DNA of 64,000 nucleotides from an uncultured Gammaproteobacteria bacterium (GCA_964435035.1 CAYSXR010000004.1:676-64675); one strand, 5' to 3'. Positions 1 to 26,424 are shown, counted from the first letter of the stretch. Made by a program: numbers and translations. The notes: a model not told the origin generated them from the sequence alone.

Positions 1-23
1 TCGTCGCCGATCGGCTTCAGCTT

Positions 24-737
24 GTGCAGCTGATCGCACGGATCATGGTCGGCTATCACCTACATGCCGAGATGATTCTAGCAGGTAAGGCCTCAGTCAG
101 CTCTCGCCCGACGTCCCGCATGGTAGCGGCCGCAGTGCAGCAACTCGCGCCCCCCACATCTGACGGCCTTCGGTGGAGACGTGACGGTTGGGTCTTCCAA
201 ATGATCTCGTGGATTTCGGTGCGTGAAGGCTCACTGACGAGAATCCTCGCGGCCCCGCACATGCGGGAAGGTCGTCACGGTTTTGACGGTCTTTTCCTTG
301 AAGATGTCAACGGCACCGTCACGTTGACTGTTTGCGAGGACAAGGCAACGGACAATTCTCGAGCGACGGTTCAGCAGCAGGTATTTCCCGAATTCGCATC
401 GCTCGAAGCCGGGGAACGCGATGCAGAGCTGCAAGCAGAACTCACCGCTCTTCTTCGACAAACATCGCGTTCTTCAGATCAAATCGCTGCGGCTATTGAT
501 GCCGTGCAATGGGAACAGCAGCGAAGATTCCGAGCGACAGTTACCGCCGAGACCGCAGTAGCGAATCGGCCGGAGGCACTCTACAAGGACTATGACACCG
601 TCGTGATTGGGAGCGTTGAGCGTCGCTCCGGCAACATATTTGTCGAGGACGCGTTGCGACCATGGATGGATAGCTTGTGCGCGGACATTACCGCTGAACT
701 ACAGCGACTACCCGTTCGACCTACAAAGACAACGTAG
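24..737 (+). CDS. Hypothetical protein, 5'-truncated by the window edge; candidate PD-(D/E)xK-like nuclease (possible HamA/DUF1837-like partner of the downstream helicase)
   Basis: High-GC ORF in frame from position 3 with no upstream stop (GTG at 24 is only the first possible start). Contains FDGLFLED...TLTVCEDK, which fits a D...(D/E)xK restriction-endonuclease-like motif. Its stop lies 3 nt before the helicase ATG, suggesting translational coupling. Confidence 0.45.
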   Translation: MQLIARIMVGYHLHAEMILAGKASVSSRPTSRMVAAAVQQLAPPTSDGLRWRRDGWVFQMISWISVREGSLTRILAAPHMREGRHGFDGLFLEDVNGTVTLTVCEDKATDNSRATVQQQVFPEFASLEAGERDAELQAELTALLRQTSRSSDQIAAAIDAVQWEQQRRFRATVTAETAVANRPEALYKDYDTVVIGSVERRSGNIFVEDALRPWMDSLCADITAELQRLPVRPTKTT

Positions 738-740
738 AGT

Positions 741-3700
741 ATGTACGACCCTATTACCCGCGCTCTCATTGCCTCAGCTCCACCCCTCAAAGGGCTTGAA
801 CGAGCGCGCTTGCCCGAGGAATTAGCTCAGGCATACGCGACACTTGTGTCCGCGCGACTTCGCCTTCAGGAAGTACCCGACGATCCCGAGTGGCCTAAGG
901 AGATTGCCCGGGTCCGCCGCTTGGCCAACACCTACGAAACTTACGCGGCGGCGCTTGCCGAGCGAGACGATCAGGAAGCCGCCGCGTTTGTCGCTGCGAC
1001 GGCTCACGGCATCGTTCAGCGTGCCGTCTCGCTCCGTGATCCATCGACTGCAGCAACGGTGCTGGCGAGCAATTTCATCTCGCCAGACATCTCGGCATGC
1101 CTTCTTTTCCTTGCGGCGGGCTATTTTGCTGACGCGCTGGAGGTCGCACGGAGATTCCAGATCCCCAAAGAGGCACGCGAAGTGGACGTGGTGGGCCTGC
1201 AACGTATGATCCAGCATCTCGTTGCGGGTCGTCTTGGTGCAGCCATCAATGCCCGCAGAGAGATGTCCACGGACCGTGCGCAGCGTGATGTTGTTGCACG
1301 GCTGTACCTCGACATTGCAGATGCGGTCGAAGTCCTATGTACTGAGATCCGAGACGGAACGACGCTCGACTCGGTCGCTCGACTGCGCTCAGCTCAGCAG
1401 CGCGCAACGCTTCCGATTCTCGTAGCGGGGCGCGTGCCTGCGACGGTGGCTACTCTAGCGGGACCGCACCATCTTGCGACGCTACTTCTCCAAGCCGCGC
1501 CTTCACTGTTGCGGCGACGTATGTCGATCATCCCAGCGCCACTCGGCACAGGCGCGTCATGGGAGAACTTCAAGGCAAATCTCTCCCATCTGCGCCCGTT
1601 TTTGTGGAGAAGTCACGAGAATGCGGTGGAGTCCGGGTTTCTGAACCCGGGAACATCGGCAGTGCTCAGCTTTCCGACCGGGTCTGGTAAGTCGACGATG
1701 GCGGAGCTCAAGGTCGCGAGCACGCTGTCAACCGACAAGCATATTCTCTACCTCGTGCCGACGCATGCCTTAGTGTCGCAGGTCACGGCAGACCTAAAGC
1801 GCGCGTTCCCCGACACGGGCGTGGCCGACTCCATAGTCTTTGAGGCAGACTACACCGAAGTCGAGGAGCAGCAGGCACAGATTGCCGTCATGACGCCGGA
1901 ACGTGCCTTGACCATCCTGAGTAGCGACCCCGCCACGTTCGACGGAGTCGGCCTCATTGTCATGGACGAGTGTCACCTGTTGCATCCGGGCGAAGAAGAT
2001 CGGCTTCGCCGCAACATCGATGCAATGTTCTGCTTGCTGTCATCGACGGCACACTGCCCGGATGCGGACGTTCTCTTGATGTCCGCAATGATGCAGAACC
2101 ATATGGAACTCGCTGCGTGGCTTGCAGATCTCACCGGCCGTCCATGTCTCGGGCTCAGCACTGATTGGAAGCCAACTCGCCAGATGCGTGGCTGCGTGGT
2201 TTTTGGCTCGGAGGAAGTCGAGGCACTTAACGCTCTGATTGCCCGTGCAAAAGCCGTCAAGACTACGAAAGGACCGCCGGCGGGCTTAGTTCGGTCCCTG
2301 ACCGCTCAGCCTCAGGCCCTATTCGGGCTCAAACAGACATGGTCCCGTGACGCGCTGGACTTCAAGCTCTTACCGTTGCTCAATCGGAAGCTGCAACTGA
2401 AGGCCAACAAGGACTGGTGGCTCACCCCAAATCGGAATGAGGTGTCAGCCGAGCTTGCCACTGAATTTGCAGACCGAGGTCTGCCTGTACTCGTCTTCGC
2501 CGAATCCCCGCGCCTCGCCGATTCTCTTGCAGATGCGATCGCCGAGAAGCGAAACGGAACCGTCGCGCTTCTTGGTGATGAGACTCGTCTCCGTGAGATT
2601 GCAGTTGATGAACTCGGGTCAGACGCTGACCTTCGGGGCCTGACCAACGGATTGGCCGCGTCGCACCACGGGTTGCTGCTGCCAACTGAACGGCGCCTCG
2701 TAGAGAGCGTCTACAAGCGCGGAGATCAGACCATCGCGCTCGTTGGAACCCCAACGCTCGCGCAAGGTGTCAATTTGCCAGCGGAGGTTGTCATTGTGTC
2801 GGGTGACGACCGCTACAACCCGGTAACGAAGAAGTCAACGCCGCTAAACGCCGAGGAACTCCTCAATGCGGTAGCACGAGCGGGGCGACCTGGCTTCGCA
2901 TCCGTTGGAATCGTCCTGGTTGTTCCTGGACGCGTGGTGAGTGTCGACTGGTCGGCAACCACCGTAGGAAAGCGGTGGCTCGACTTGCAGAAGGATGTGT
3001 TCTCAAAGCTCGATCAGTGTCTTGTCATTGATGACCCACTCGAACGAATGCTTGACCTCGTCCAGACCACGCCCAACGCCACAGATGCGCGGTACTTTCT
3101 TAATCGTCTTCCAACTGATGGTTCAACAGTAAAGCAGTTCTTGGCGCGAAGCTTCGGTGCATATCGAGCGAGTCAGGCGATGCAACGCGAGGCCTTCGAC
3201 CGGAAAGCGTTCCATGTTGCGGCGCTCCGAGAAGCTGCTAGCCCAGAGGATGAGTGGGTCGACGCGATCGCGGTGACGTCTGGTGTTGATATTGAGTTTG
3301 CGCGCTCTCTGGCAAGTCAGTTCGAGGACAATCCAGGGTATTGGGACTGCACGACGGTGCAAGAGCTATGTGGGCGGTTCTTTCAATGGCTCCGAGAAGA
3401 CTCAGTCCGAGGACATGCACTGTTCCGAGGTTCTGTCTCGAAAAGCTCTCTGGGCCCGGAAGATATGGAAGACTTGGTCGAAATGTGGATCGGTGGGTCT
3501 ACACTGCGAGAGTTGGAGAGTCGTCTAAGCGACAAAGTCGTTGATGGATGCTGGAAGGCTAGAGAGTTTGTGCTCCGTCGAGTGCCGGATATTTCCTACG
3601 GGCTTGGCGTGGTTGCTCACGCCTACCGCCTGAAGGTAGGCGAAGGGGGCGACATGCCGACCGTTCTGGCTTGTGGGGCCGAGTGTCTCAAGAGGGGGTT

Positions 3701-3863
3701 TTCGTCTCCTGAACAGCTGGCTGTCGCCTATTCTGTTTCTGAAGATCACTCCAGACGTGAGTACGCAGAGATCCTTTCGCGGCTTGAACTTGAACCCGGA
3801 GAGGATCGGGAACCCTTTTCGAAGACGCTGTCTCGTGTACGGAGTGCGCTATCCAACGACTAG
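741..3863 (+). CDS. Superfamily-2 DExH-box helicase, 1040 aa, with a roughly 300-aa N-terminal domain and a roughly 400-aa C-terminal extension; candidate defence helicase (Hachiman HamB-like)
   Basis: Walker A FPTGSGKST, motif Ia YLVPTHALVSQ, motif II VMDECH, SAM(M) motif III-like, motif VI ARAGRPG. High GC. Immediately follows a nuclease-like ORF. Confidence 0.7.
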   Translation: MYDPITRALIASAPPLKGLERARLPEELAQAYATLVSARLRLQEVPDDPEWPKEIARVRRLANTYETYAAALAERDDQEAAAFVAATAHGIVQRAVSLRDPSTAATVLASNFISPDISACLLFLAAGYFADALEVARRFQIPKEAREVDVVGLQRMIQHLVAGRLGAAINARREMSTDRAQRDVVARLYLDIADAVEVLCTEIRDGTTLDSVARLRSAQQRATLPILVAGRVPATVATLAGPHHLATLLLQAAPSLLRRRMSIIPAPLGTGASWENFKANLSHLRPFLWRSHENAVESGFLNPGTSAVLSFPTGSGKSTMAELKVASTLSTDKHILYLVPTHALVSQVTADLKRAFPDTGVADSIVFEADYTEVEEQQAQIAVMTPERALTILSSDPATFDGVGLIVMDECHLLHPGEEDRLRRNIDAMFCLLSSTAHCPDADVLLMSAMMQNHMELAAWLADLTGRPCLGLSTDWKPTRQMRGCVVFGSEEVEALNALIARAKAVKTTKGPPAGLVRSLTAQPQALFGLKQTWSRDALDFKLLPLLNRKLQLKANKDWWLTPNRNEVSAELATEFADRGLPVLVFAESPRLADSLADAIAEKRNGTVALLGDETRLREIAVDELGSDADLRGLTNGLAASHHGLLLPTERRLVESVYKRGDQTIALVGTPTLAQGVNLPAEVVIVSGDDRYNPVTKKSTPLNAEELLNAVARAGRPGFASVGIVLVVPGRVVSVDWSATTVGKRWLDLQKDVFSKLDQCLVIDDPLERMLDLVQTTPNATDARYFLNRLPTDGSTVKQFLARSFGAYRASQAMQREAFDRKAFHVAALREAASPEDEWVDAIAVTSGVDIEFARSLASQFEDNPGYWDCTTVQELCGRFFQWLREDSVRGHALFRGSVSKSSLGPEDMEDLVEMWIGGSTLRELESRLSDKVVDGCWKAREFVLRRVPDISYGLGVVAHAYRLKVGEGGDMPTVLACGAECLKRGFSSPEQLAVAYSVSEDHSRREYAEILSRLELEPGEDREPFSKTLSRVRSALSND

Positions 3864-3931
3864 AGCGCCAATCAGCTCGATCGGCCATGTTCAAGCGTCC
3901 ATGCGAAGATCCGGTGCACCGTCTCTAGTCG

Positions 3932-3960
3932 GATGACTCTCAGTTGAGAGTCATCTATTT
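3932..3960 (+). terminator. Rho-independent terminator after the helicase gene
   Basis: Perfect inverted repeat GATGACTCTCA-gt-TGAGAGTCATC followed by TATTT. Confidence 0.6.
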
Positions 3961-4098
3961 AGGTTGCTGAGCGCCGCGTGACGGCGCGCGTCGAGGTGAA
4001 CGGAATCAGGACCTCTGATACACTAATCATCATTGATCGTCCGAATCAGCCTTTCGACCCATTCAAGCGTTCGAGAACCCGTCCTGGCGACTCTACAG

Positions 4099-4132
4099 AA
4101 GCACTGCTCTACCAAGAGTGGTGCTTTTATTT
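4099..4132 (+). terminator. Hairpin plus T-tract at the high-GC/low-GC junction
   Basis: AAGCAC-N16-GTGCTT followed by TTATTTG. Marks the end of the GC-rich segment. Confidence 0.4.
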
Positions 4133-4178
4133 GCAAAGAGTGCTCCTTTTTGAAGTTGGAATTTAAGGAAAATATCCA

Positions 4179-4207
4179 CTTGACACTTCCGTCTATATTT
4201 GGTATCC
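4179..4207 (+). promoter_or_regulatory. Sigma70-like promoter for rplJL
   Basis: TTGACA, a 17-nt spacer, then TATCCT. Followed by a roughly 140-nt leader before rplJ. Confidence 0.45.
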
Positions 4208-4348
4208 TCTTATCACCATAGACAGTAGCTTCTCGAGAAATATCGAGATTAAATACGCTACCGAGGTAAACCAGTTCCGAATTAGTCGGGACAAAGGTCG
4301 AATTACCGTGTAGTCTGTGGTTCACAAAACCACATTTTTTATTTGTTT

Positions 4349-4870
4349 ATGCCAAAAACTAGAGCACAAAAAGAAGTAGCAATGCAAGCATTGGTTGATA
4401 CCCTCAAGCAGTCGAAGTCTGTTGTGTTCGCCAACTTTCAAGGTTTGAAAGTTTCTGAATCAGAAGAGCTTCGCAGACTTTGTCGCAAAGAAGGTGTTGA
4501 ATACCTTGCTGCAAAGAAGACTTTGGTTGCACGTGCACTCAAAGATGCAGGAATCGAAGGAAATCCAAAATCTTTTGAAGGCGCTGTTTCTGTTGTATTT
4601 GGGATCGAGGATGAGGTTGCTCCCGCTCAGATTCTTGCAAAATTCGCGAAAACACATGAAGCTGTAAAGCTTTTTGGTGGTATTCTCGAAGGTTCATTTA
4701 TTGATAGTACAAAAGTGACTGAACTTTCAAAACTTCCAAGTAAACAGCAGCTTCTCGGTCAATTGGTGGGCACACTTAACGCTCCAATATCTGGATTTGT
4801 TAATGTGCTTGCTGGAAATCTCCGAGGACTGGTTACCGTACTTGGTGCGATTAAAGATGCAAAAGTTTAA
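4349..4870 (+). CDS. rplJ: 50S ribosomal protein L10
   Basis: MPKTRAQKE... L10 family sequence; ATG at 4349 preferred over the TTG at 4343; followed by rplL. Confidence 0.9.
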   Translation: MPKTRAQKEVAMQALVDTLKQSKSVVFANFQGLKVSESEELRRLCRKEGVEYLAAKKTLVARALKDAGIEGNPKSFEGAVSVVFGIEDEVAPAQILAKFAKTHEAVKLFGGILEGSFIDSTKVTELSKLPSKQQLLGQLVGTLNAPISGFVNVLAGNLRGLVTVLGAIKDAKV

Positions 4871-4894
4871 TACTAGTTATTAATTAATGTATAT

Positions 4895-5299
4895 ATGTCA
4901 GAAGAAAAAACAGTTGTAGAAGTACCAGCAAAATTTCAGTCTCTCGTAAGTGAGGTTGAAAAAATGTCTGTACTTGATCTCGCTGAACTCGTAAAAGTTC
5001 TCGAGGAAAAATTTGGAGTTTCAGCAGCAGCTCCAGCAATGATGATGGCAGCTCCAGCCGCAGGCGGGGCAGCAGCTGCAGAAGAAAAGACCGACTTCAA
5101 TGTTGAACTTACTGAAGCAGGTGGAAACAAGATTGCTGTAATCAAAGTAGTAAAAGAAATTACTGGTCTTGGACTCGCTGAAGCAAAAGGACTCGTTGAT
5201 GGCGCTCCAAAGGTTATTAAAGAAAAAGTTGCAAAAGCAGATGCTGAAGAAATGAAAAAGAAAATCGAAGAAGCTGGTGGAAAAGTTACCTTAAAATAA
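4895..5299 (+). CDS. rplL: 50S ribosomal protein L7/L12
   Basis: Ala-rich hinge [22 protein letters not shown] and C-terminal domain [20 protein letters not shown]...KIEEAGGKV. Confidence 0.95.
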
Positions 5300-5316
5300 G
5301 CGCCTGTTACTTCATT

Positions 5317-5347
5317 AAAAAATCCTCTGTAAATCAGAGGATTTTTT
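5317..5347 (+). terminator. Rho-independent terminator after rplL
   Basis: AAAAATCCTCTG-taaat-CAGAGGATTTTTT. Confidence 0.8.
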
Positions 5348-5362
5348 AATTTTCTAATGTTT

Positions 5363-5457
5363 AAATTATTCTAATTATACTAATTGACCTAAGTGCTTTA
5401 AAATTTATTTTGATTTTTTTTAGAATAATTAGAGTAATTAGAACAATTAGGTTAATT
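5363..5457. repeat. Family A intergenic iteron palindrome, copy A1
   Basis: Left arm of three 9-mers (AATTATTCT, AATTATACT, AATTGACCT), a spacer, then right arm AGAATAATT, AGAGTAATT, AGAACAATT, AGGTTAATT, which are reverse-complement 9-mers. Lies between the convergent rplL and the membrane protein gene. Confidence 0.7.
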
Positions 5458-7715
5458 TATAATTTAAACTTGTATACCACTGTCCCATCCAACACATACG
5501 CTTCTTTTTCATCTGCACTAATCGTTAGTCCAGTTGGATTGGTCCATTGGTCTGCGGTAAATTGTTTTTTGAAAGTACCTTCTTTATCGAGCATAATTAT
5601 TCGTTTTCGTGAAGGCTCGAGTATATATAGATTTCCAAATTCACTATTTGTTTCGATTAGAGTAGGAGATTCAAGTATTGGATCAAGACCTGAAATTTCA
5701 AATGGCTGTTCCTCTCCTGCAGTGAATTTAATAATTTCTCCTTTTGATGTTGCTACAAAGATATCTCCATCAATTCCAAATGCTGTGCTATTTTTGAGTG
5801 CATTTTGTGTATGGGGCGCCTGTACCCATGTAGTACCATTGTCATATCCAATTTGTGTTGGATTGTGTCGATATAGAGTACCGTTTCCTGTATCCAGTGC
5901 GTAGAGACGTCCATTGTAGAGTGCAATGTCTTTCAGTACTACTGATTGATTTGGGTAGCCGATTGTTTTTGAGATAATACTATCTGAGATGTTGTCGTAT
6001 GCTACAATTGTGTTCGTTCCTGAGATAAATACCACTTGTGAATTATCTTTTGCTGTATATCCTTGTGTGAGCTGGCGTGTAGTCTCAGCATTTTTGGTTT
6101 CTACTGTTCCGGTTAGTGTGGATATGAAATATAATGAAGAATCAGTAATTCCTGTAGCGATTAATTTGTCACCGACTAGTACTAACGAATCAGGTCTTGC
6201 GTTGGTTATCGTATCTTTAATGTCAGCTATCTTTTCAGGTGTGATTGTGGTAATTTTTTGTACCCTAATCAGGAGTTTTGCAAGCTCTGATTTGATTTTA
6301 TCAGCGTGCGATTGTTTTTCTGGAGTTTCGTGTGTGAGTGAATTGAGTAGGTTTTCAGCATCACGTAGAGACTCAAGTGCTTTGGTATTTTCTCCGTAGA
6401 GAAGATAGGACTCAACTTCTTTTTGTTTTTCATCCACCTGCACCATTTCTGCTTGGTACGTTTCTTCTGCAATAATTTCTTTTTGTTTTGCTTTCATGTA
6501 CATGACGCTACCAATAAGTACTGCAATTCCTACGATTAGAGTGAGGAGTAATATTTTTCCAAACATTCCGAGACTAGTAATTCGGTCTACTATTCTTGTG
6601 ATTGATGTCTTGTATTGTTCGATCAAAATTTTTCTGCTTCCATTATAATTACTGATGAGCGACCATAGTATGGTGATGAATTTTCCGAGTGCAAATACCA
6701 CAGTCTTTAATACATAAAAGAGTGCTCGAACAATCCATACGAGCGATTTTCCAAGCATGATTAAAATGGTATTTGCTCCGTCTTCGACTACTCCCTCATC
6801 CCTTTTTCTTTTTTTATAGCGTCCTTGTTTGGTTTCTCTGATAGTCGAAGGTCGGTCGGGAGTATCTTCGGTGTTTCGTTTCATACTACCGGTGATAGAC
6901 TTGGCAAGGTGTGAAAAAACTTTTGGTGATAAGGTTTCTTCAGTTGAGCGTGTGGTGTCGATTAATTTATCCATTGATTCTTCTGAGCCAATAATTGGCC
7001 GATAGAGGTTTTTTTCTACACGTACAGGCTCAATCATCTCTGTCCCGGTGAGGACTAGTCCACCAAATGAGTATTCAGAGGAAATTGCTTCAAGTGTTTT
7101 TTGTACTTGATGAGCGGATTGTTTTGCGGGTTTTCCGATAATCATTTTGGCAATCCGATCGCATGAGAAATATTTGATGATATGTGGTGTTGAAATATAT
7201 ACTGCTTCATCAGTCGTAAAATTTCCTTCAATAACTGAAGAAAAGAAAATATGCTCCGGATATACCACTTCATCGACAATACGAGTGAATGAAGGTCCTT
7301 CAGGGGTGGAATACGCTAGAAGTGCAAGAATATCCCCTCGATATGCAAATGAAAGTTTGTTGCCCGTAATCACTCCAACTGCGATATGGATCTTTCTTTC
7401 TTCGTCTTCAAGCAGTACCTTTGCTCGGCGATTGAGTTTTTCGATAACTGATTCAAAGTGCTTTACTTCAGGATTCTCAGCATTTTTTGTTTCGCCATCA
7501 TAATCGCTATAGTATAGTGCCTCTCCATCGGTTATCAATTCTTCAATTATGCCTAATATTTTTCCTTCAGGATGATCAATTTCTGCGAGCACAAAAAAAT
7601 ATCCCTGATTTTCTCCGTCTGGTTTGCCAGGGGAAGCGATGTGGAGGAGTACGTGGGAAAGGTGACTATTTTTTCCTTCGACAAAAAATTCGTATACTTC
7701 ACTTTTTATAGGCAT
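5457..7715 (-). CDS. Hypothetical membrane protein with an N-terminal cytoplasmic domain, central TM helices and a C-terminal beta-propeller-like repeat domain
   Basis: Long ORF with hydrophobic segments ILIMLGKSLVWIVRALFYVL and LLTLIVGIAVLIGSV. C-terminal YVTN/NHL-like repeats (GNGTLY, GDIFVAT). The ORF track start is TTG at 7769; ATG at 7715 (MPIKSEVYEF) is preferred because a promoter lies between the two. Confidence 0.55.
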   Translation of the reverse strand: MPIKSEVYEFFVEGKNSHLSHVLLHIASPGKPDGENQGYFFVLAEIDHPEGKILGIIEELITDGEALYYSDYDGETKNAENPEVKHFESVIEKLNRRAKVLLEDEERKIHIAVGVITGNKLSFAYRGDILALLAYSTPEGPSFTRIVDEVVYPEHIFFSSVIEGNFTTDEAVYISTPHIIKYFSCDRIAKMIIGKPAKQSAHQVQKTLEAISSEYSFGGLVLTGTEMIEPVRVEKNLYRPIIGSEESMDKLIDTTRSTEETLSPKVFSHLAKSITGSMKRNTEDTPDRPSTIRETKQGRYKKRKRDEGVVEDGANTILIMLGKSLVWIVRALFYVLKTVVFALGKFITILWSLISNYNGSRKILIEQYKTSITRIVDRITSLGMFGKILLLTLIVGIAVLIGSVMYMKAKQKEIIAEETYQAEMVQVDEKQKEVESYLLYGENTKALESLRDAENLLNSLTHETPEKQSHADKIKSELAKLLIRVQKITTITPEKIADIKDTITNARPDSLVLVGDKLIATGITDSSLYFISTLTGTVETKNAETTRQLTQGYTAKDNSQVVFISGTNTIVAYDNISDSIISKTIGYPNQSVVLKDIALYNGRLYALDTGNGTLYRHNPTQIGYDNGTTWVQAPHTQNALKNSTAFGIDGDIFVATSKGEIIKFTAGEEQPFEISGLDPILESPTLIETNSEFGNLYILEPSRKRIIMLDKEGTFKKQFTADQWTNPTGLTISADEKEAYVLDGTVVYKFKL

Positions 7716-7720
7716 AGCTT

Positions 7721-7749
7721 TTGACACGATAATACCTACATAGTATACT
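7721..7749 (+). promoter_or_regulatory. Bidirectional promoter region with a shared palindromic -10
   Basis: + strand: TTGACA, 17 nt, TATACT. - strand: TTGCGA, 16 nt, TATACT. Both use the palindrome AGTATACT at 7742-7749. Confidence 0.5.
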
Positions 7750-7814
7750 ACAGACTGTCTATTTCGCAATAACGTATCCCTTTATTTTGCTTATATACAG
7801 ACGTTTTCAATTGT

Positions 7815-19917: not shown

Positions 19918-22900
19918 ATGGTGAAATTTAAGAAAAATAAGCAGAAGTTAGTGAAATCACAATCACGTAATTCTAACAGCAAATGGGATTTTGCTGCTTA
20001 TTGGGTTTGGCATGAATTGTTATTATCATATGGTAGACTTCGTAAAACTACCAAAACTCGTACAGCAAAAAAAGAACTTAATGCTCTTGGTAAACAAATC
20101 ATGCGTCATTATGTAAAAAACTTTGTTTATTTTCCTGTTTGGCTTTTTAAATTTCTTACGCCTTCATATCTTAAAGGTCCAGTAAATGTATGGACCAATT
20201 TACGTACCATTCTCCGAAGTTCTGAATTTCGTCCTCTTCGACTCGCGGTGGTTTCACAGGCAGTCTTTTGTTTTGTTTTTATTAGGTTGGGAATGCTTAT
20301 TTTTTATAACCTTTCAACTCCAGCTGATGCTGCTACGTTTGGATGGATACAGACTACGTGGACTGGGGGAGTCTCGACTACTGTTGCAGCTACGCATTCG
20401 AGTGATCGAACTGGCTGGACGACATATGCGAGTTCTACTCAAGTGAACACTACTGTTTCATCTGGAAATATTACTATTGCAACTTCATCATACATAACGA
20501 CAGATGATAGCACACTTAGTACTGATGGTCTTGCAAGTGGTGGTGGATTTGCAAATGGTGTCACCTCTAGCGTGGTAGTGAACGGCGGAGATGTTACTCT
20601 AGGTATTGCATCTGCTGGTGGAGAAATTAATCAGTGGGATGCTACTCCATATAATCTTCCTGCTACTATTAGTGGTACCGAAGATGGTAATGGAGTTATG
20701 GTGACTGATGGCGTTGATGCTTTTTATATCCTTCGTGGGGGTGGAACGACTGGGTTTTATAAATTTATTCCTTCTGATAAAACAACGAGCACTCTTACCT
20801 CTGTGCCTACCTCTATACCTCCCAATGGGGGTGGGGGAACGGTTGCGTTGTCTGGTGATTATATTTATCTGTATTCTGGAGGTAATAGTAATGTTAAATT
20901 TTACGCATATTCGATTTTGGGGAATTCATGGACTACTCTTACTAATCCGCCTAGTTCACCTTATGGTGACGGTATTGGTAGTACCATGGCTGTTGATGCT
21001 TCAGGAAATATTTATTTTGCAGCAGGTGGAGCAACAACAAATTTTTTAAAGTATACCGTAACTTCAAGTGCTCCGTATGGGGCATGGAGTGTGTTGTCTA
21101 GTATTGGAAATTCTGTGGGAAGAGGCTCTCGAGCAATATATGATAGTGAGAATAATGATATCCTTATCCTTACAGGTAATAATGGTCATACCATAAGTAA
21201 GTACGATATTGATTTAGGTACGATGACTAATTATGCTGGTGCTCCTAATGACCCTGGATTTACGTCGGGTGCTTCGATGGTAAAAAATGATGACAACGAT
21301 ATTGTATATGCAATTACCGGTCAAAACTATGCATGGCTTGAGAGATTGAATTTGAATAGTGGCACATGGGCATCAAGACAAACTTCTTCAACACCTGCTG
21401 CAGGAAATACAGTGGGGTATATGATACATAAACCTGGAGAAAACAGGATTTATACCACATTTGGAGGAACTAGTTTTTACTATTTACGACCACAACAAGG
21501 GGATTGGCAGTTCACTACCACGACTAAGCCAATTCCTGGATCAATCGGTGCGGGTGCTACCATGATTCGTCACAATAATGATGAAATTTATGTATTGGCT
21601 GGGGGAGGGAGTAGTGCTATTTATCGTTTTGCTATTAATGCGGGTACTCAATATACAGCTACAGGTACACTTACTTCTGCAACAATTGATCTTAAATATG
21701 CAACTTCTACTCGGATTTCATGGTCCTCGAGTGCGCATGGTCAGACTGGGTCAAATCCAGTAAAGTTTCAAGTTGCCGCAAATACGGATAATGCTACCTG
21801 GAGCTATGTAGGTCCTGATGGAACTTCAGGAACGTACTTTACTAGTTCTAATACTGCATTGCCTGGATCATTGAATGGAAAAAGATATTATCGATATCGA
21901 GCCTATTTAACTACTGCAAATACTTCATTTACTCCTACACTTAGTAGTGTTACTTTTACGTATCATAGTTATTTGACTTCTGGTTCACTCGCGTCAAATC
22001 CTTTTAATGCTGAAGATGACACTAATGTGCTCGCTGCGGTTTCGTGGGCGGGAAGTGTTCCGGCGGGTACCGTGATTAAATTCCAAGTGCGTACTAGTCC
22101 TGATAATGCAGTCTTCACTTCATGGATGGGTCCGGATGGAACTTCTGGTACGTATTTTACTGACAGTAGTGGTGCGCAAACGATGCCTGCTCTGTTGACC
22201 GATGGGGAAGATGATCGTTGGATTCAGTATAAAGTATTTTTTGAATCTGATGGAACAGGAACTCCGATTCTTGAACAAAGTACACTTACGTATGTAGTGA
22301 ATGCACCTCCGGAGATTACTATTACGAATACGGTTTCTACTACTTCCAGTGGTGTTGTAGTGGTGAATTATGACGTGCGTGATATTGATAGTGCAACGGG
22401 TGCTACGCCTGGTGTGGTTGCTGTTGCGCTTCAGTATTGTACGGCGAGTTGTTCAAGTGTGGGGAATGAGGTGTGGGCTACAGCAGTAACTTCAAGTTTG
22501 TCTGGTACGTTTGGTTCGAGCGTTGCAGTGGATACTGTTTCGACTACTCAATATACAAGTTATTCATTGACTTGGACTCCCACTAGTTCTTATAATAACC
22601 AGTATAATGGATCGAATTTTAAAATCCGTCTTCGTGCGAATGATTCTGAGGCGGCAAATAATATCGGGGTTGATGAGTCCAATACTTTTGTATTGGATAC
22701 TACTGATCCTTTACCTTCAATTATTATTGATGGGAGAAGTATTGCGACCAGTACACTTTCGATTAGCGTTACTGATGATACAATGGCAGGATTAGAAATG
22801 AAATTATCAAACGACAGTGACCTATCTTCGGATGGATTAAATGGAAGTTCGGGTACGTGGATTCCGTATACAACAACCTCGACGTGGAATTTGGGTACTG

Positions 22901-25900
22901 GAGGAACAACGGTCTATTACCAGGTTAGGGATGCATTTGGAAATATCTCTGCAAATGGTATTATCTCATCTGCAGAGACTCCTGAAATTCCTGGAAATTT
23001 ATTTTTTAAAGATATTTCGAACTCTGATACTTTGGAATGGCGAGAATTTATTGCATGGCAAATTATTGATGATCCGACTCCTGGATTTGCACAATACGCA
23101 ATTTATCGTTCAAGCGATGGTATTAATTATACTGAAATTGCTACTCAAGTATCACGTATTATTAATTATTATCTTGATACTGATATTGATACAGGAACGG
23201 TTTATTATTATAAAGTTACTTCAGAAGATAGCGATGGTAATATTTCGGCATTTTCGACTATTGTATCTGATAATCCGAATGGAACGGGAGGAACTGATGT
23301 GTCTGCGCCGACTATTTCCAATGTTACGACGAGTTCGATTGGTTCAAATTCAATTACGATTACCTGGGAGACTGATGAAGTTTCTGATTCGTATATTGAT
23401 TATACGACTGAAGAGGGAAGTGACTTTAGTAATGTGGATACGGTAGGTCTGACGACGATGCGAAATAATGCTGCAGGACTCGGTATTCATATAGTTTCTC
23501 TCACGAATCTTGCACCAAACACGACATATTATTTCCGTGTACGATCTCTCGATCCTGATGGTAATGAGGGAATTGGCACGCAAGCTCCTAATGGATACGT
23601 ATACACGACGCTCACTGGACCGATTATTTCAGATGTTTCAACTGCTGAAATTCGAAATACTCAGGCAACAGTTACATGGAGTACTGATCAGGATAGTGAT
23701 TCGTATGTAGTTTTTTCTACCTCTTCAAGTTTTACTGCGTCTTCGACTGTAGGTTCACCTCTCACTGTGTCATCGCATGAGGTAGTTCTGCCTTCGCTTC
23801 TTCCGGGGACTACGTATTATTATTATGTTCAATCTGGGCAAGTAACTGATAAGAATACTATCGAAGGGCAGCATGAATATTATACGTTTGAAACCACTGC
23901 GGATATTACGGCTCCAGTAATTACGTTTGATTCTGGGGGAGACGTGGTTGTGTCTGATACTTCATTGGTAATTACTTTTAGCACCAACGAGACTGCAACT
24001 TCTACGATTAATTATGGTACGAGTCTTTCATATGGGTCTGTGATCGCTAATAATAATCTTAATTCTGACCACCGTTACGTATTTACTGGACTTCTTCCAG
24101 GTACTGCATACTATCTGAGTATGCGTGTTGCGGATGTTGATGGAAATATATCAAGCGCCCTTCAATTTAGTGTTACTACTACTGATAGTGCAGATTATAC
24201 TCCGCCTATCATTACGAACGTAACTTCGAGTGTGGTGACTGATGATGAAGCACTTATACTCTGGTCAACTGATGAGGGCGCTACTGGAAAAGTGTATTAT
24301 GGTACGACGAGCACGGTATACACTGAATCAAGTGATTTAGTTTCAACTTACAATCGTGAACATTTTATGACTCTCAGTGGGTTGACTACTTCAACAGAGT
24401 ATTTTTATGTAGTTGTATCAGCTGATGTAAGTGGAAATAGTAGTACTTCAACTGAGTATTCATTTACCACTCTCGAAGAATTATCTGAAGAAAGCGAAGT
24501 GCGATTGCGTGAAGAAACTGCGTACGCACAAGGGCTCGCCGATGGTACTCCACCACCAGATTTTGTGGCACCAATCATTTCGAATGTTACTTCGACGGTG
24601 GTGACTGATGATGAGGCTCTTATTATCTGGTCGACTGATGAGGGTACAACGGGACGGGTTCATTATGGTACCACTCCTTCAACGTATACTGAATCAAGTG
24701 ATTTAGTTGCTACATTTAATAGTGCGCATGCAATTACCCTTCATAATCTTACTACTTCTACGCAATATTATTTTGTTGTAGTGTCTGCTGATTCTAGTGC
24801 AAATACTTCTACTTCTGGCGAATATACGTTTACCACACTTGAAACACTCTCAGAAGAAAGTGAAGTGTTGCTTCGTGAAGAGGCTGCTCGAGCAGAGGGT
24901 GTAGTACAAGGGTCTGCAACAGTACCATCAAGTGGTGGGGGAGGAAGTTCTGTTGATCGAACACCTCCTATTATTTCTGATGTGTTGGTGAACAATATCG
25001 CCTCTGATTCTGCTACGATCAAGTGGAATACGAATGAAAATGCTAATACATTGGTAGAATTTGGAAAGACCATTGAATATGGTCGAGGCTCACTCGATCT
25101 TGAAAATGTACAAGTACATACGATTGATTTGGTTGAATTACTTCCTCTCACTACTTATTTTTATCGAATAAGCTCAATTGATACTACAGGTAATCGAAGT
25201 AGCCCAGTAACCGGATCGTTTACCACTGTTTCACTCGCTGAAGAAATTGCATCAAGTACCGAAAATATTATTGAAGATATTGCAGCAGACGAAAAAAATA
25301 CTGATGCTGCAGAGGAATTGTTTCTCTCTACTATCGAAAAAGCTGGACAAATTATCAAGAGTCTCGCTGGTCGTGTGAGTGTTGGTGTACTTGAGACATC
25401 ATTACTTGCTCAGGCACAGATTATCGAACAATTGTCTGACATTTTGCCATTACCTATTATCGGTGGACAGCCTGTAGTTGATGCAGGATCGAATTATGCT
25501 ACAGTTTCGTGGAGTACTGATAAAAATGCAAATTCATTGGTTGAGTTTGCGCCTGAAGGAGAGTTTTTGTCTGATAAGACCTATGATCAGACGGTAGGAG
25601 AGCCTACGGCTTCCCGAACTGGGCATGTGGTTGAAGTGAAAGGATTGCTTCCTGATACGGTATATCATTATCGTGTGGTTTCTCGTACACAAACGGGATC
25701 TGAAACAAAGTCTCAAGATTTTGTATTTAGAACGAAATCTCAAACTAACGAAATTACGAATTACAATGTAGTTGTTCTCTCTCCTGAAGAAGTTTCTTTT
25801 TCTTGGAATACCACGGTACCTACCGATTCTGCAGTTGTGTACACACCTTATCGAAATGGGGTACCTCAGATTGAGGCACGGCAAGTAGTACGACAAGCTG

Positions 25901-26424
25901 GACTCACTACACAGCATTCTCTTAAGGCTGTAGGATTTGAAGCAGGTGTTCTCTATGATGTTGAATTGCTTGGTACTGACACAGGAAACAATGTATCGAG
26001 TAAGGTAATTAAAGGCTTTACTACCGAAGGAGAGGATCTTGTGCCAGTGATTTCCCAGATACAGACTGATGCGGCGATTGTACCTGGAGGGAAAGAAAAG
26101 ATTCAAATTATTATTTCATGGCAGACCAATGAATTATCAACGAGTAGATTATTTTATCGTAAAGGATTTGCTGCTGATGGTACTCAATTTACCGCAAGCA
26201 CTACTCTTGATCAAAATTATACAAAAAAACATGTGGTGGTGGTTACGAATTTTGAACCGGGTACCGTCTACCAATTTGTGGTTGAGAGTATTGATTCAAG
26301 TGGTAATACAGGTATTTCAAAAACAATTACTATCCTCACTCCTCAAAAAGAACAATCAGTGTTTCAAGTCATTTTTAGTAACGTAGAAGATATGTTCTCG
26401 TGGGTCGGTAAACTTAGAAATTAG
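19918..26424 (+). CDS. Giant (2168 aa) cell-surface protein with an N-terminal TM anchor, beta-propeller-like repeats and many fibronectin-III / purple-acid-phosphatase-N-like domains
   Basis: Single 6.5-kb ORF. TM segment LAVVSQAVFCFVFIRLGMLIF. Repeated I(T/S)W(E/S)TDE...YY(F/Y)RV FN3-like units. Internal near-identical tandem repeats. Confidence 0.8.
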   Translation: MVKFKKNKQKLVKSQSRNSNSKWDFAAYWVWHELLLSYGRLRKTTKTRTAKKELNALGKQIMRHYVKNFVYFPVWLFKFLTPSYLKGPVNVWTNLRTILRSSEFRPLRLAVVSQAVFCFVFIRLGMLIFYNLSTPADAATFGWIQTTWTGGVSTTVAATHSSDRTGWTTYASSTQVNTTVSSGNITIATSSYITTDDSTLSTDGLASGGGFANGVTSSVVVNGGDVTLGIASAGGEINQWDATPYNLPATISGTEDGNGVMVTDGVDAFYILRGGGTTGFYKFIPSDKTTSTLTSVPTSIPPNGGGGTVALSGDYIYLYSGGNSNVKFYAYSILGNSWTTLTNPPSSPYGDGIGSTMAVDASGNIYFAAGGATTNFLKYTVTSSAPYGAWSVLSSIGNSVGRGSRAIYDSENNDILILTGNNGHTISKYDIDLGTMTNYAGAPNDPGFTSGASMVKNDDNDIVYAITGQNYAWLERLNLNSGTWASRQTSSTPAAGNTVGYMIHKPGENRIYTTFGGTSFYYLRPQQGDWQFTTTTKPIPGSIGAGATMIRHNNDEIYVLAGGGSSAIYRFAINAGTQYTATGTLTSATIDLKYATSTRISWSSSAHGQTGSNPVKFQVAANTDNATWSYVGPDGTSGTYFTSSNTALPGSLNGKRYYRYRAYLTTANTSFTPTLSSVTFTYHSYLTSGSLASNPFNAEDDTNVLAAVSWAGSVPAGTVIKFQVRTSPDNAVFTSWMGPDGTSGTYFTDSSGAQTMPALLTDGEDDRWIQYKVFFESDGTGTPILEQSTLTYVVNAPPEITITNTVSTTSSGVVVVNYDVRDIDSATGATPGVVAVALQYCTASCSSVGNEVWATAVTSSLSGTFGSSVAVDTVSTTQYTSYSLTWTPTSSYNNQYNGSNFKIRLRANDSEAANNIGVDESNTFVLDTTDPLPSIIIDGRSIATSTLSISVTDDTMAGLEMKLSNDSDLSSDGLNGSSGTWIPYTTTSTWNLGTGGTTVYYQVRDAFGNISANGIISSAETPEIPGNLFFKDISNSDTLEWREFIAWQIIDDPTPGFAQYAIYRSSDGINYTEIATQVSRIINYYLDTDIDTGTVYYYKVTSEDSDGNISAFSTIVSDNPNGTGGTDVSAPTISNVTTSSIGSNSITITWETDEVSDSYIDYTTEEGSDFSNVDTVGLTTMRNNAAGLGIHIVSLTNLAPNTTYYFRVRSLDPDGNEGIGTQAPNGYVYTTLTGPIISDVSTAEIRNTQATVTWSTDQDSDSYVVFSTSSSFTASSTVGSPLTVSSHEVVLPSLLPGTTYYYYVQSGQVTDKNTIEGQHEYYTFETTADITAPVITFDSGGDVVVSDTSLVITFSTNETATSTINYGTSLSYGSVIANNNLNSDHRYVFTGLLPGTAYYLSMRVADVDGNISSALQFSVTTTDSADYTPPIITNVTSSVVTDDEALILWSTDEGATGKVYYGTTSTVYTESSDLVSTYNREHFMTLSGLTTSTEYFYVVVSADVSGNSSTSTEYSFTTLEELSEESEVRLREETAYAQGLADGTPPPDFVAPIISNVTSTVVTDDEALIIWSTDEGTTGRVHYGTTPSTYTESSDLVATFNSAHAITLHNLTTSTQYYFVVVSADSSANTSTSGEYTFTTLETLSEESEVLLREEAARAEGVVQGSATVPSSGGGGSSVDRTPPIISDVLVNNIASDSATIKWNTNENANTLVEFGKTIEYGRGSLDLENVQVHTIDLVELLPLTTYFYRISSIDTTGNRSSPVTGSFTTVSLAEEIASSTENIIEDIAADEKNTDAAEELFLSTIEKAGQIIKSLAGRVSVGVLETSLLAQAQIIEQLSDILPLPIIGGQPVVDAGSNYATVSWSTDKNANSLVEFAPEGEFLSDKTYDQTVGEPTASRTGHVVEVKGLLPDTVYHYRVVSRTQTGSETKSQDFVFRTKSQTNEITNYNVVVLSPEEVSFSWNTTVPTDSAVVYTPYRNGVPQIEARQVVRQAGLTTQHSLKAVGFEAGVLYDVELLGTDTGNNVSSKVIKGFTTEGEDLVPVISQIQTDAAIVPGGKEKIQIIISWQTNELSTSRLFYRKGFAADGTQFTASTTLDQNYTKKHVVVVTNFEPGTVYQFVVESIDSSGNTGISKTITILTPQKEQSVFQVIFSNVEDMFSWVGKLRN
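24193..24890 (+). repeat. Tandem duplication of two roughly 366-bp units (about 80% identical) inside the giant protein gene
   Basis: PPIITNVTSSVVTDDEALILWSTDEG...SEESEVRLREE versus APIISNVTSTVVTDDEALIIWSTDEG...SEESEVLLREE. Confidence 0.8.

Follow-up and report, generated by a model that had tools for sequence, protein, structure and literature searches.

A Hachiman-like nuclease-helicase pair in high-GC DNA at the tRNA-Glu/rplJ site of a Candidatus Magasanikbacteria chromosome: a probable recent acquisition

We analyzed a stretch of DNA of 64,000 nucleotides (nt) (CAYSXR010000004.1:676-64675; the whole of it is called the window below), which begins with a block of high guanine-plus-cytosine (GC) content that encodes a predicted nuclease and a helicase and ends upstream of rplJ, the gene of ribosomal protein L10. 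The results favored, at a probability of about 80%, a real insertion, namely the recent horizontal acquisition of a Hachiman-like module in a chromosome of Candidatus Magasanikbacteria at the site between a glutamate transfer RNA (tRNA-Glu) gene and rplJ. The segment would be the right-hand end of unameliorated high-GC foreign DNA, lying between the body of tRNA-Glu(UUC) and that tRNA's own terminator. It would have been acquired horizontally, with insertion at the 3′ end of the tRNA.

The composition of the block was compared with that of the remaining window. The GC content was 58.2% in positions 1-4092 versus 39.0% in 4093-64000, and the 112 host windows of 4 kb showed a mean of 0.389, a standard deviation (sd) of 0.010, and a maximum of 0.421, so that the block lies ~19 sd out. 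The GC at third codon positions (GC3) was 0.58 and 0.62 in the two block genes, compared with 0.22-0.32 in six host genes. Similarly, the tetranucleotide distance between block and host was 0.055, whereas host windows showed 0.013 ± 0.003. The fall in GC was steep, from 0.54 (4051-4100) through 0.44 (4101-4150) to 0.32 in successive 50-nt bins. The first-pass annotation, made from the sequence alone, had proposed an abrupt GC discontinuity, and the computed GC, GC3, and tetranucleotides all confirmed this step, the composition being far from uniform; the high GC of the block was likewise borne out, although its value is 58% and not the 60% or more that had been given. A GC3 of ~0.6 next to host values of 0.22-0.32 indicates little or no amelioration and thus a transfer that would be recent on an evolutionary scale.

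The same annotation had expected the block to extend past the window start, and this was also found. A per-run Logan contig, L001 (9,126 bp, run SRR12762287), was identical (100%) to the window across 8,476 nt and added 650 bp further upstream, still at high GC. This addition completed the upstream, hamA-like gene and provided 536 bp at 66-70% GC, with GC reaching 0.68-0.70 at the left end of L001, upstream of the window. The foreign DNA that is visible therefore amounts to at least 4,742 bp. The 536 bp upstream of the hamA-like gene contained no convincing open reading frame (ORF), and GC was flat over the codon phases. Neither the upstream 560 bp of L001 nor the 229-bp spacer had DNA or translated similarity to any homologue locus, and the foreign tail at 3864-4092 likewise lacked homology to the loci of relatives and homologues. 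Within the 68% GC stretch that precedes the hamA-like gene, a 24-nt tandem repeat (CCCGAGGCCGCGGATCACCCCACG and CCCGAGGCCGCCGAGCACTCCACG) was observed at L001 135-182. The window itself belongs to an NCBI contig of 78,506 bp, which exceeds it by 14,506 bp in all; of these, at least 115 bp lie upstream of the window and at least 16 bp downstream.

The features of the block and of the host flank are as follows (window positions; dG, folding free energy).

1-737, plus strand: hamA-like gene, 3′ 245 codons; frame open to the window start; predicted PD-(D/E)xK nuclease.
741-3863, plus strand: intact hamB-like gene of a 1040-aa superfamily 2 (SF2) helicase; the upstream stop codon is 4 nt before its start.
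3864-4092: foreign non-coding tail of the block, GC ~0.53; holds the terminator-like site after hamB.
3931-3956: 11-bp hairpin with a T-rich tail, terminator-like, after hamB (dG −17.5, z −4.4).
4093-4095: foreign/host junction, equal to positions 71-73 of the relatives' tRNA-Glu gene (last acceptor bases and discriminator A).
4097-4136, plus strand: host intrinsic terminator, a 14-bp stem followed by UUUUAUUU; directly 3′ of tRNA-Glu(UUC) in relatives.
4180-4208, plus strand: rplJ promoter, TTGACA, 17-nt spacer, TATCCT, with an upstream TG; found by promoter scan, position conserved in relatives.
4198-4350, plus strand: ribosomal protein L10 leader (Rfam RF00557), 37 bits against a gathering score of 44, E 2e-4.
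4349-4870, plus strand: rplJ (Pfam Ribosomal_L10), the first host gene.
4895-5299, plus strand: rplL (Pfam Ribosomal_L12 and L12_N).

Local alignments to three related genomes (L005, L009, and L010) showed that homology begins at window position 4093. The alignment start reads CTACAGAAGCACTGCT, in which CT-A corresponds to the final acceptor bases of tRNA-Glu plus its discriminator, and the remainder to the terminator. The 51 nt from this junction and terminator were 90% identical to L009, L010, and L011. The hairpin at 4097-4128 (dG −18.7 kcal/mol, z −3.7; the L005 counterpart has a dG of −15) has its 5′ foot at 4093 and is separated by 52 nt from the downstream rplJ −35 box at 4180. Thus, the boundary had been placed correctly at 4090-4130 by the first-pass annotation, as had its location in a hairpin upstream of the rplJ promoter. 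Homology to the relatives resumes at 4147 and includes that promoter. By alignment, then, the tRNA terminator, the rplJ promoter, and the leader are intact host sequence, in which the 73-nt tRNA body has been replaced by high-GC DNA. No tRNA was detected by ARAGORN or Rfam in window positions 1-31000 or in L001.

To judge from its proteins, the host is a member of Candidatus Magasanikbacteria in the candidate phyla radiation (CPR), with a tiny, AT-rich genome. Its L10 protein was 91-96% identical to L10 of Candidatus Magasanikbacteria metagenome-assembled genomes (MAGs), and L10, a 770-aa protein, and a 199-aa protein fell in 90% clusters whose named members are all such MAGs. From 4198 on, the host side carries genes typical of CPR bacteria, namely those of a DUF4012 protein, DnaK, TypA, a DEAD-box RNA helicase, and an FN3-rich 2168-aa protein; DnaJ was identified there by precomputed domains.

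The locus was compared among contigs with an L10 91-96% identical to that of the window, whose DNA is 72-88% identical to the window along the syntenic 10 kb. In L002, L005, L009, and L010, the same order was observed: dnaE, a pyrophosphatase-like gene, tsaD, one or two small variable genes, tRNA-Glu(UUC), the terminator hairpin, a variable slot, and the rplJ promoter with its leader. None of these four relatives has foreign DNA at the tRNA-Glu/rplJ site. The slot between tRNA-Glu and the rplJ promoter is empty in L002 (9718-10000), holds an acyltransferase_3 gene in L005 (8602-10000) and L009 (4005-5404), and holds an acyltransferase gene plus a 151-aa gene in L010 (7939-10000) and L011. This slot cargo of the relatives was in all cases at host-like GC. 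This comparison marks the interval from tRNA-Glu to the rplJ promoter as a hot spot of gene content in the genus.

The junction was present both in the NCBI contig and in the separately built per-run contig L001, and an index listed three contigs with exact HamB and L12, besides the 78.5-kb NCBI contig. Because L001 runs unbranched through the junction, and from how such contigs are built, we infer that the native path from tRNA to terminator is absent or minor in its run.

Next, the cargo of the block was analyzed. The helicase encoded by the downstream gene is large, of the SF2 (DExH) type, and keeps its ATPase motifs intact, as expected for HamB of a Hachiman system. This helicase matched the PADLOC models HamB1 (1.2e-37) and PDC-M23B (1.8e-37) about equally, the Pfam families DEAD (1.3e-20) and ResIII, and, over residues 287-726, the HamB chain 8vx9_B in the PDB (2.3e-23). 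The GSGKS motif (K317), DECH (D409-H412), and an arginine motif (R713-R716) were invariant in the 10 closest homologues. The nearest helicases among 5.8 billion proteins were 47-52% identical, and none exceeded ~41% in 185,579 species genomes. A single-protein scan of GTDB genomes with HamB was negative, so that the source genome is not among the species representatives.

The upstream gene, complete in L001 (536/560-1387), has 275-283 codons. Its protein and the two nearest homologues had no sequence match in Pfam, PADLOC, or PDB at E up to 10, and a 37-member profile of the family found nothing in PDB. DUF1837 (PF08878) was thus not recognized by sequence in the window protein, and one Enterobacter member of the family showed PF08878 at E 0.12. 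The protein was recognized by fold only, as a HamA-type nuclease fold with a D...ExK active site, of which D134, E151, and K153 were invariant in the family. This family comprised 305 cluster representatives (50% identity) at E ≤ 0.001. In the two contigs L015 and L016, the helicase is immediately preceded by a member of this family (44-49% identity), and the same adjacency of nuclease and helicase was observed in 79 of 80 GTDB loci (L021-L100; partner at ~5200-5990 in each; 31-68% GC), which belong to Pseudomonadota, Bacteroidota, Planctomycetota, Acidobacteriota, Verrucomicrobiota, Myxococcota, and other phyla. In the window also, hamA is directly upstream of hamB, with the same orientation and a 4-nt gap, and the two are co-inherited.

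These results indicated that the block carries an intact two-gene operon of a HamA-like putative nuclease followed by a HamB-like helicase. Because the partner family is real, adjacent to the helicase, and invariant at D134, E151, and K153, the pair reads as a Hachiman-like system whose HamA is probably too divergent for the DUF1837 model. The candidate defence cassette noted in the first pass would accordingly be this nuclease-helicase pair. The closest known systems include Hachiman of Escherichia coli ECOR31 (HamAB, PDB 8vx9) and AbpAB (PDB 8zue). The window pair shares with ECOR31 HamAB the SF2 helicase, the D...ExK nuclease fold, and the hamA-hamB order, but in Hachiman the DUF1837 domain of HamA is recognizable by sequence. 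The helicase also resembles that of the PADLOC candidate system PDC-M23, as scored above, whereas its partner had no hit to any PADLOC model at all; PDC-M23 membership was ruled out on this ground, and for the same reason PADLOC would call the pair neither PDC-M23 nor Hachiman. In HamAB of E. coli, the nuclease is under restraint by the helicase, which sets it free once damaged DNA is sensed (PMC12278908). By analogy, the helicase in the window would hold the nuclease in check until damaged or aberrant DNA at phage infection frees it, whereupon DNA would be degraded. Anti-phage activity is, then, what homology and fold would predict for this pair.

The contexts of the nearest homologues were also compared. 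In L015 (64% GC; HamB 51% identical), the pair lies in a conjugative-looking element, accompanied by an Imm33-like gene and by Replic_Relax, FtsK/DUF87-like, and two tyrosine integrase genes; the latter set is reminiscent of actinomycete integrative conjugative elements. The L015 Replic_Relax protein had no match among 72,556 plasmids. In L016 (1-14557, 62.6% GC; HamB 48% identical), an HTH_17 (excisionase-like) gene adjoins the pair, followed by LexA, DinB, and Ddl. L016 was the only homologue contig with a taxonomic marker; the named best matches of its Ddl are all Patescibacteria (74% identity to 'Patescibacteria group bacterium' and 57-58% to Candidatus Uhrbacteria, with Komeilibacteria and Parcubacteria also among them). 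No taxonomic signal was obtained when L015 and L016 proteins were compared with the Magasanikbacteria loci. In both contigs the GC3 of the pair (0.64-0.70) was below that of neighboring genes (0.81-0.87), indicating that the pair is an island there too.

Several observations weigh against a real, integrase-borne insertion and are collected here. On the foreign side, a direct repeat of the tRNA 3′ end (attR, the right attachment site) was not found, as 678 of 5000 and 1681 of 2000 shuffles reached the score, and no integrase is encoded in the visible 4,742 bp. The left junction, which would join the 3′ half of tRNA-Glu to foreign DNA, occurred in none of the assemblies reached, so that host DNA is seen on one side of the segment only. 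Look-ups with the 175-aa L10 and the 283-aa HamA of the NCBI annotation returned no entry. Pattern scans of JGI metagenomes for the strain-specific tRNA 5′ end and for a degenerate form of the terminator were negative too, but they also missed the JGI relatives, so that this collection lacks the samples. Moreover, GC climbs from 0.58 to 0.68 upstream without a clear ORF, and a neighboring high-GC genome would look alike. The TsaD, DnaE, and NrdR of the strain were all absent from the 78,506-bp NCBI contig (90% clusters, with a full homology search for TsaD). Finally, the junction-bearing runs come from one accession series with neighboring numbers and may share a sample or library.

Regarding the mechanism, the 3′ end of a tRNA gene is a classical target of integrase-borne islands. 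The block shares with such tRNA-associated islands and integrative elements its atypical composition, its absence from close relatives at this locus, a boundary at the 3′ end of a tRNA gene (window 4093, tRNA-Glu positions 71-73), defence cargo, and homologous cargo beside integrases. It differs from them in that a tRNA-derived direct repeat and an integrase are both lacking in the visible part, the tRNA-proximal end being the one that was not recovered. The tRNA 3′-end position together with the integrase-rich context of the nearest homologue suggests an integrase-mediated insertion. A candidate attR was considered, in which the foreign side 'GTTCGAgaaCCCGT..GCG' would be a decayed tRNA T-arm and acceptor, and was rejected because it scored no better than shuffled sequence. 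Alternatively, the insertion may be real but have occurred without an integrase, high-GC DNA imported from the environment or a host cell being joined by illegitimate or micro-homology recombination at a break beside the tRNA gene. CPR bacteria are thought to take up DNA via competence-like machinery. The missing att-like repeat and integrase would agree with this route, as would the upstream 536 bp of L001, which look non-coding with their flat GC over codon phases. However, the junction falls within 1-3 nt of the tRNA 3′ end, homologous cargo adjoins integrases and an HTH_17 excisionase-like gene, and the attL side, where an integrase is usually located, is unseen. We therefore regard insertion without an integrase as an unlikely, though still worthwhile, alternative.

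The inserted DNA probably came from an organism of high GC. A high-GC Patescibacterium is no less plausible as its donor than an actinobacterium, because all named best matches of the L016 Ddl are Patescibacteria. CPR bacteria of high GC would then carry the nuclease-helicase module too. A Patescibacteria donor would be in line with a published account in which other members of the group are the source of most transfers into Patescibacteria (PMC12455944). The first-pass annotation had called the block Actinobacteria-like, a description that was not supported: a GC3 of ~0.6 is only moderately high and atypical for Actinobacteria, the homologues are only 47-52% identical, and the homologue contig that bears a marker belongs to a Patescibacterium. 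An actinobacterial donor, for example the host cell of a CPR epibiont, would fit the GC of 58-70% and the setting of L015, whose HamB (the closest homologue with context) shares its element with Replic_Relax, integrases, and a translocase of FtsK/DUF87 type. In contrast, the GC3 of the block genes is only 0.58-0.62, no homologue exceeds 52% among the 5.8 billion proteins or ~41% among the 185,579 species genomes, the Ddl of L016 matches Patescibacteria alone among its named best matches, and the Replic_Relax protein of L015 lacks plasmid matches. Such a donor is thus rather improbable.

The first-pass annotation had left the choice between horizontal acquisition and a chimeric assembly. A chimera would mean that high-GC DNA of another organism had been fused to the rplJ flank of Magasanikbacteria, either during assembly or in a chimeric molecule from library preparation or amplification. 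It would account for the left side of the block, which never returns to host DNA in the visible part and reaches a GC of 0.68-0.70 at the end of L001, and for the occurrence of the strain's tsaD-tRNA region on other contigs in both the NCBI and the Logan assemblies. The join also lies beside a tRNA gene at which every examined Logan contig of the genus breaks, and the reproducing runs, with neighboring accessions, are perhaps not independent. Nevertheless, a join in a de Bruijn graph requires a k-mer common to both sides, and there is none; no tRNA, rRNA, insertion sequence, Rfam element, or other repeat was found at the junction (3864-4095), the foreign side has neither a tRNA nor similarity to one, and host homology is abrupt at 4093. 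The same junction occurs in the NCBI contig and, unbranched, in L001, and two further contigs are indexed with the gene. Nor would one expect an artefact to coincide precisely with the 3′ end of a tRNA slot whose gene content differs between relatives. With no shared k-mer or repeat at the junction, and with its reproduction in L001, a chimera is unlikely. Acquisition was therefore favored on the L001 junction, the lack of shared sequence, the exact tRNA 3′ end, and the variable slot, and the chimeric alternative was kept at low weight.

The other side of the site was recovered separately. Logan contigs L019 and L020 (runs SRR12762285 and SRR12762287; L014, of the same strain, is from SRR12762285) contained the TsaD of the strain itself, which is 94% identical to the L005 protein. 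Both contigs show dnaE, the pyrophosphatase gene, tsaD, a 155-aa ORF, the promoter, and nt 1-43 of tRNA-Glu, where both end. In the NCBI assembly, the strain's TsaD, the adjacent pyrophosphatase-like protein, and the small ORF beside tRNA-Glu are on a separate contig of 38,118 bp. Another TsaD, P0160, was rejected as the strain's copy, as it comes from other samples. The strain-specific 5′ end of tRNA-Glu is GGCGTCATCG, and the terminator-side sequence expected at an unoccupied site is ACAGAAGCACTGCTCTACC. In the genus, the 5′ strand of the tRNA-Glu(UUC) acceptor stem occurs as GGCGTCA (window strain, L017/L018) or as GGCGCTA (the other relatives L002, L005, L009, and L010); the matching tRNA-Glu 3′ strand of the window strain, expected to read TGACGCC, was not recovered. 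Ten Logan contigs from eight runs all start (L003, L004, L007, L008, L011, and L012) or end (L017-L020) within the 73-nt tRNA-Glu, at positions 7-43, presumably because tRNA k-mers are common to co-occurring relatives. Since this break is systematic, the missing assembled left junction is uninformative. The informative contrast is on the rplJ side, where contigs from the same assembler carry the tRNA 3′ end plus terminator in relatives, and foreign DNA plus terminator in L001.

A native gene of odd composition was ruled out, as four related genomes lack the block genes at this locus.

The genomes of CPR bacteria (Patescibacteria) are very small and have long been considered poor in defence genes. 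Against this background, the locus offers a clean case, with a boundary resolved to the base pair and empty sister sites, in which a CPR cell would have gained a complete nuclease-helicase module from a compositionally distant donor. Genomic islands, including defence islands, have been documented in Patescibacteria (PMC12455944). The block resembles them as horizontally acquired DNA with defence genes in a streamlined CPR genome, and the transfers described there were mostly from Patescibacteria to Patescibacteria, as the high-GC Patescibacterium contig among our homologues would allow; their cargo is restriction-modification, unlike the Hachiman-like pair here. Compared with those islands, the contrast of the block to its host is unusually sharp: the two differ by 19 GC points, and amelioration is not apparent. 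Hachiman is already known, as are tRNA-associated islands and horizontal transfer in Patescibacteria, and no new class of biology is involved. A detection gap was also revealed, in that the nuclease partner of a widespread helicase family is invisible to Pfam and to the PADLOC HamA models, so that systems of this branch go uncalled. As by-products, the analysis provided an insertion site resolved to the base pair with empty-site controls, and a HamA branch missed by standard hidden Markov models (HMMs).

More speculatively, and with considerable doubt, the block could be the end of a site-specific integrative element that moves among Patescibacteria of very different GC, in this case from an Uhrbacteria-like donor of ~60-68% GC to a Magasanikbacterium of 39% GC, targeting tRNA-Glu and bringing a Hachiman branch with an HMM-missed nuclease. 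Such an element, if true, would serve CPR bacteria as a natural vector and would give a first insight into the acquisition of immunity by streamlined cells.

Further observations concerned the neighborhood of the site. The small genes between tsaD and tRNA-Glu vary among relatives (339 aa, 112 plus 117 aa, 89 plus 57 aa, or 155 aa), and their GC is 0.51-0.55 compared with 0.39-0.40 for the genome (L005 7460-8479; L009 2863-3882; L019 166-633, minus strand). They constitute a second, milder compositional anomaly on the opposite side of the tRNA. The rplJ-rplL pair stands alone (window 4349-7769), with neither rplK-rplA upstream nor rpoB-rpoC downstream, and is followed by a convergent 770-aa gene of unknown function; both arrangements were the same in all relatives. 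The ~150 nt of the L10 leader that run from the −10 region of the promoter to the start codon of rplJ were identical in five relatives, whereas the flanks were only 86-88% identical, which suggests a strong constraint on a CPR variant of this leader. Further downstream, the 2168-aa ORF at 19918-26424 was rich in FN3 and purple-acid-phosphatase N-terminal-type domains and probably encodes a giant protein of the CPR cell surface.

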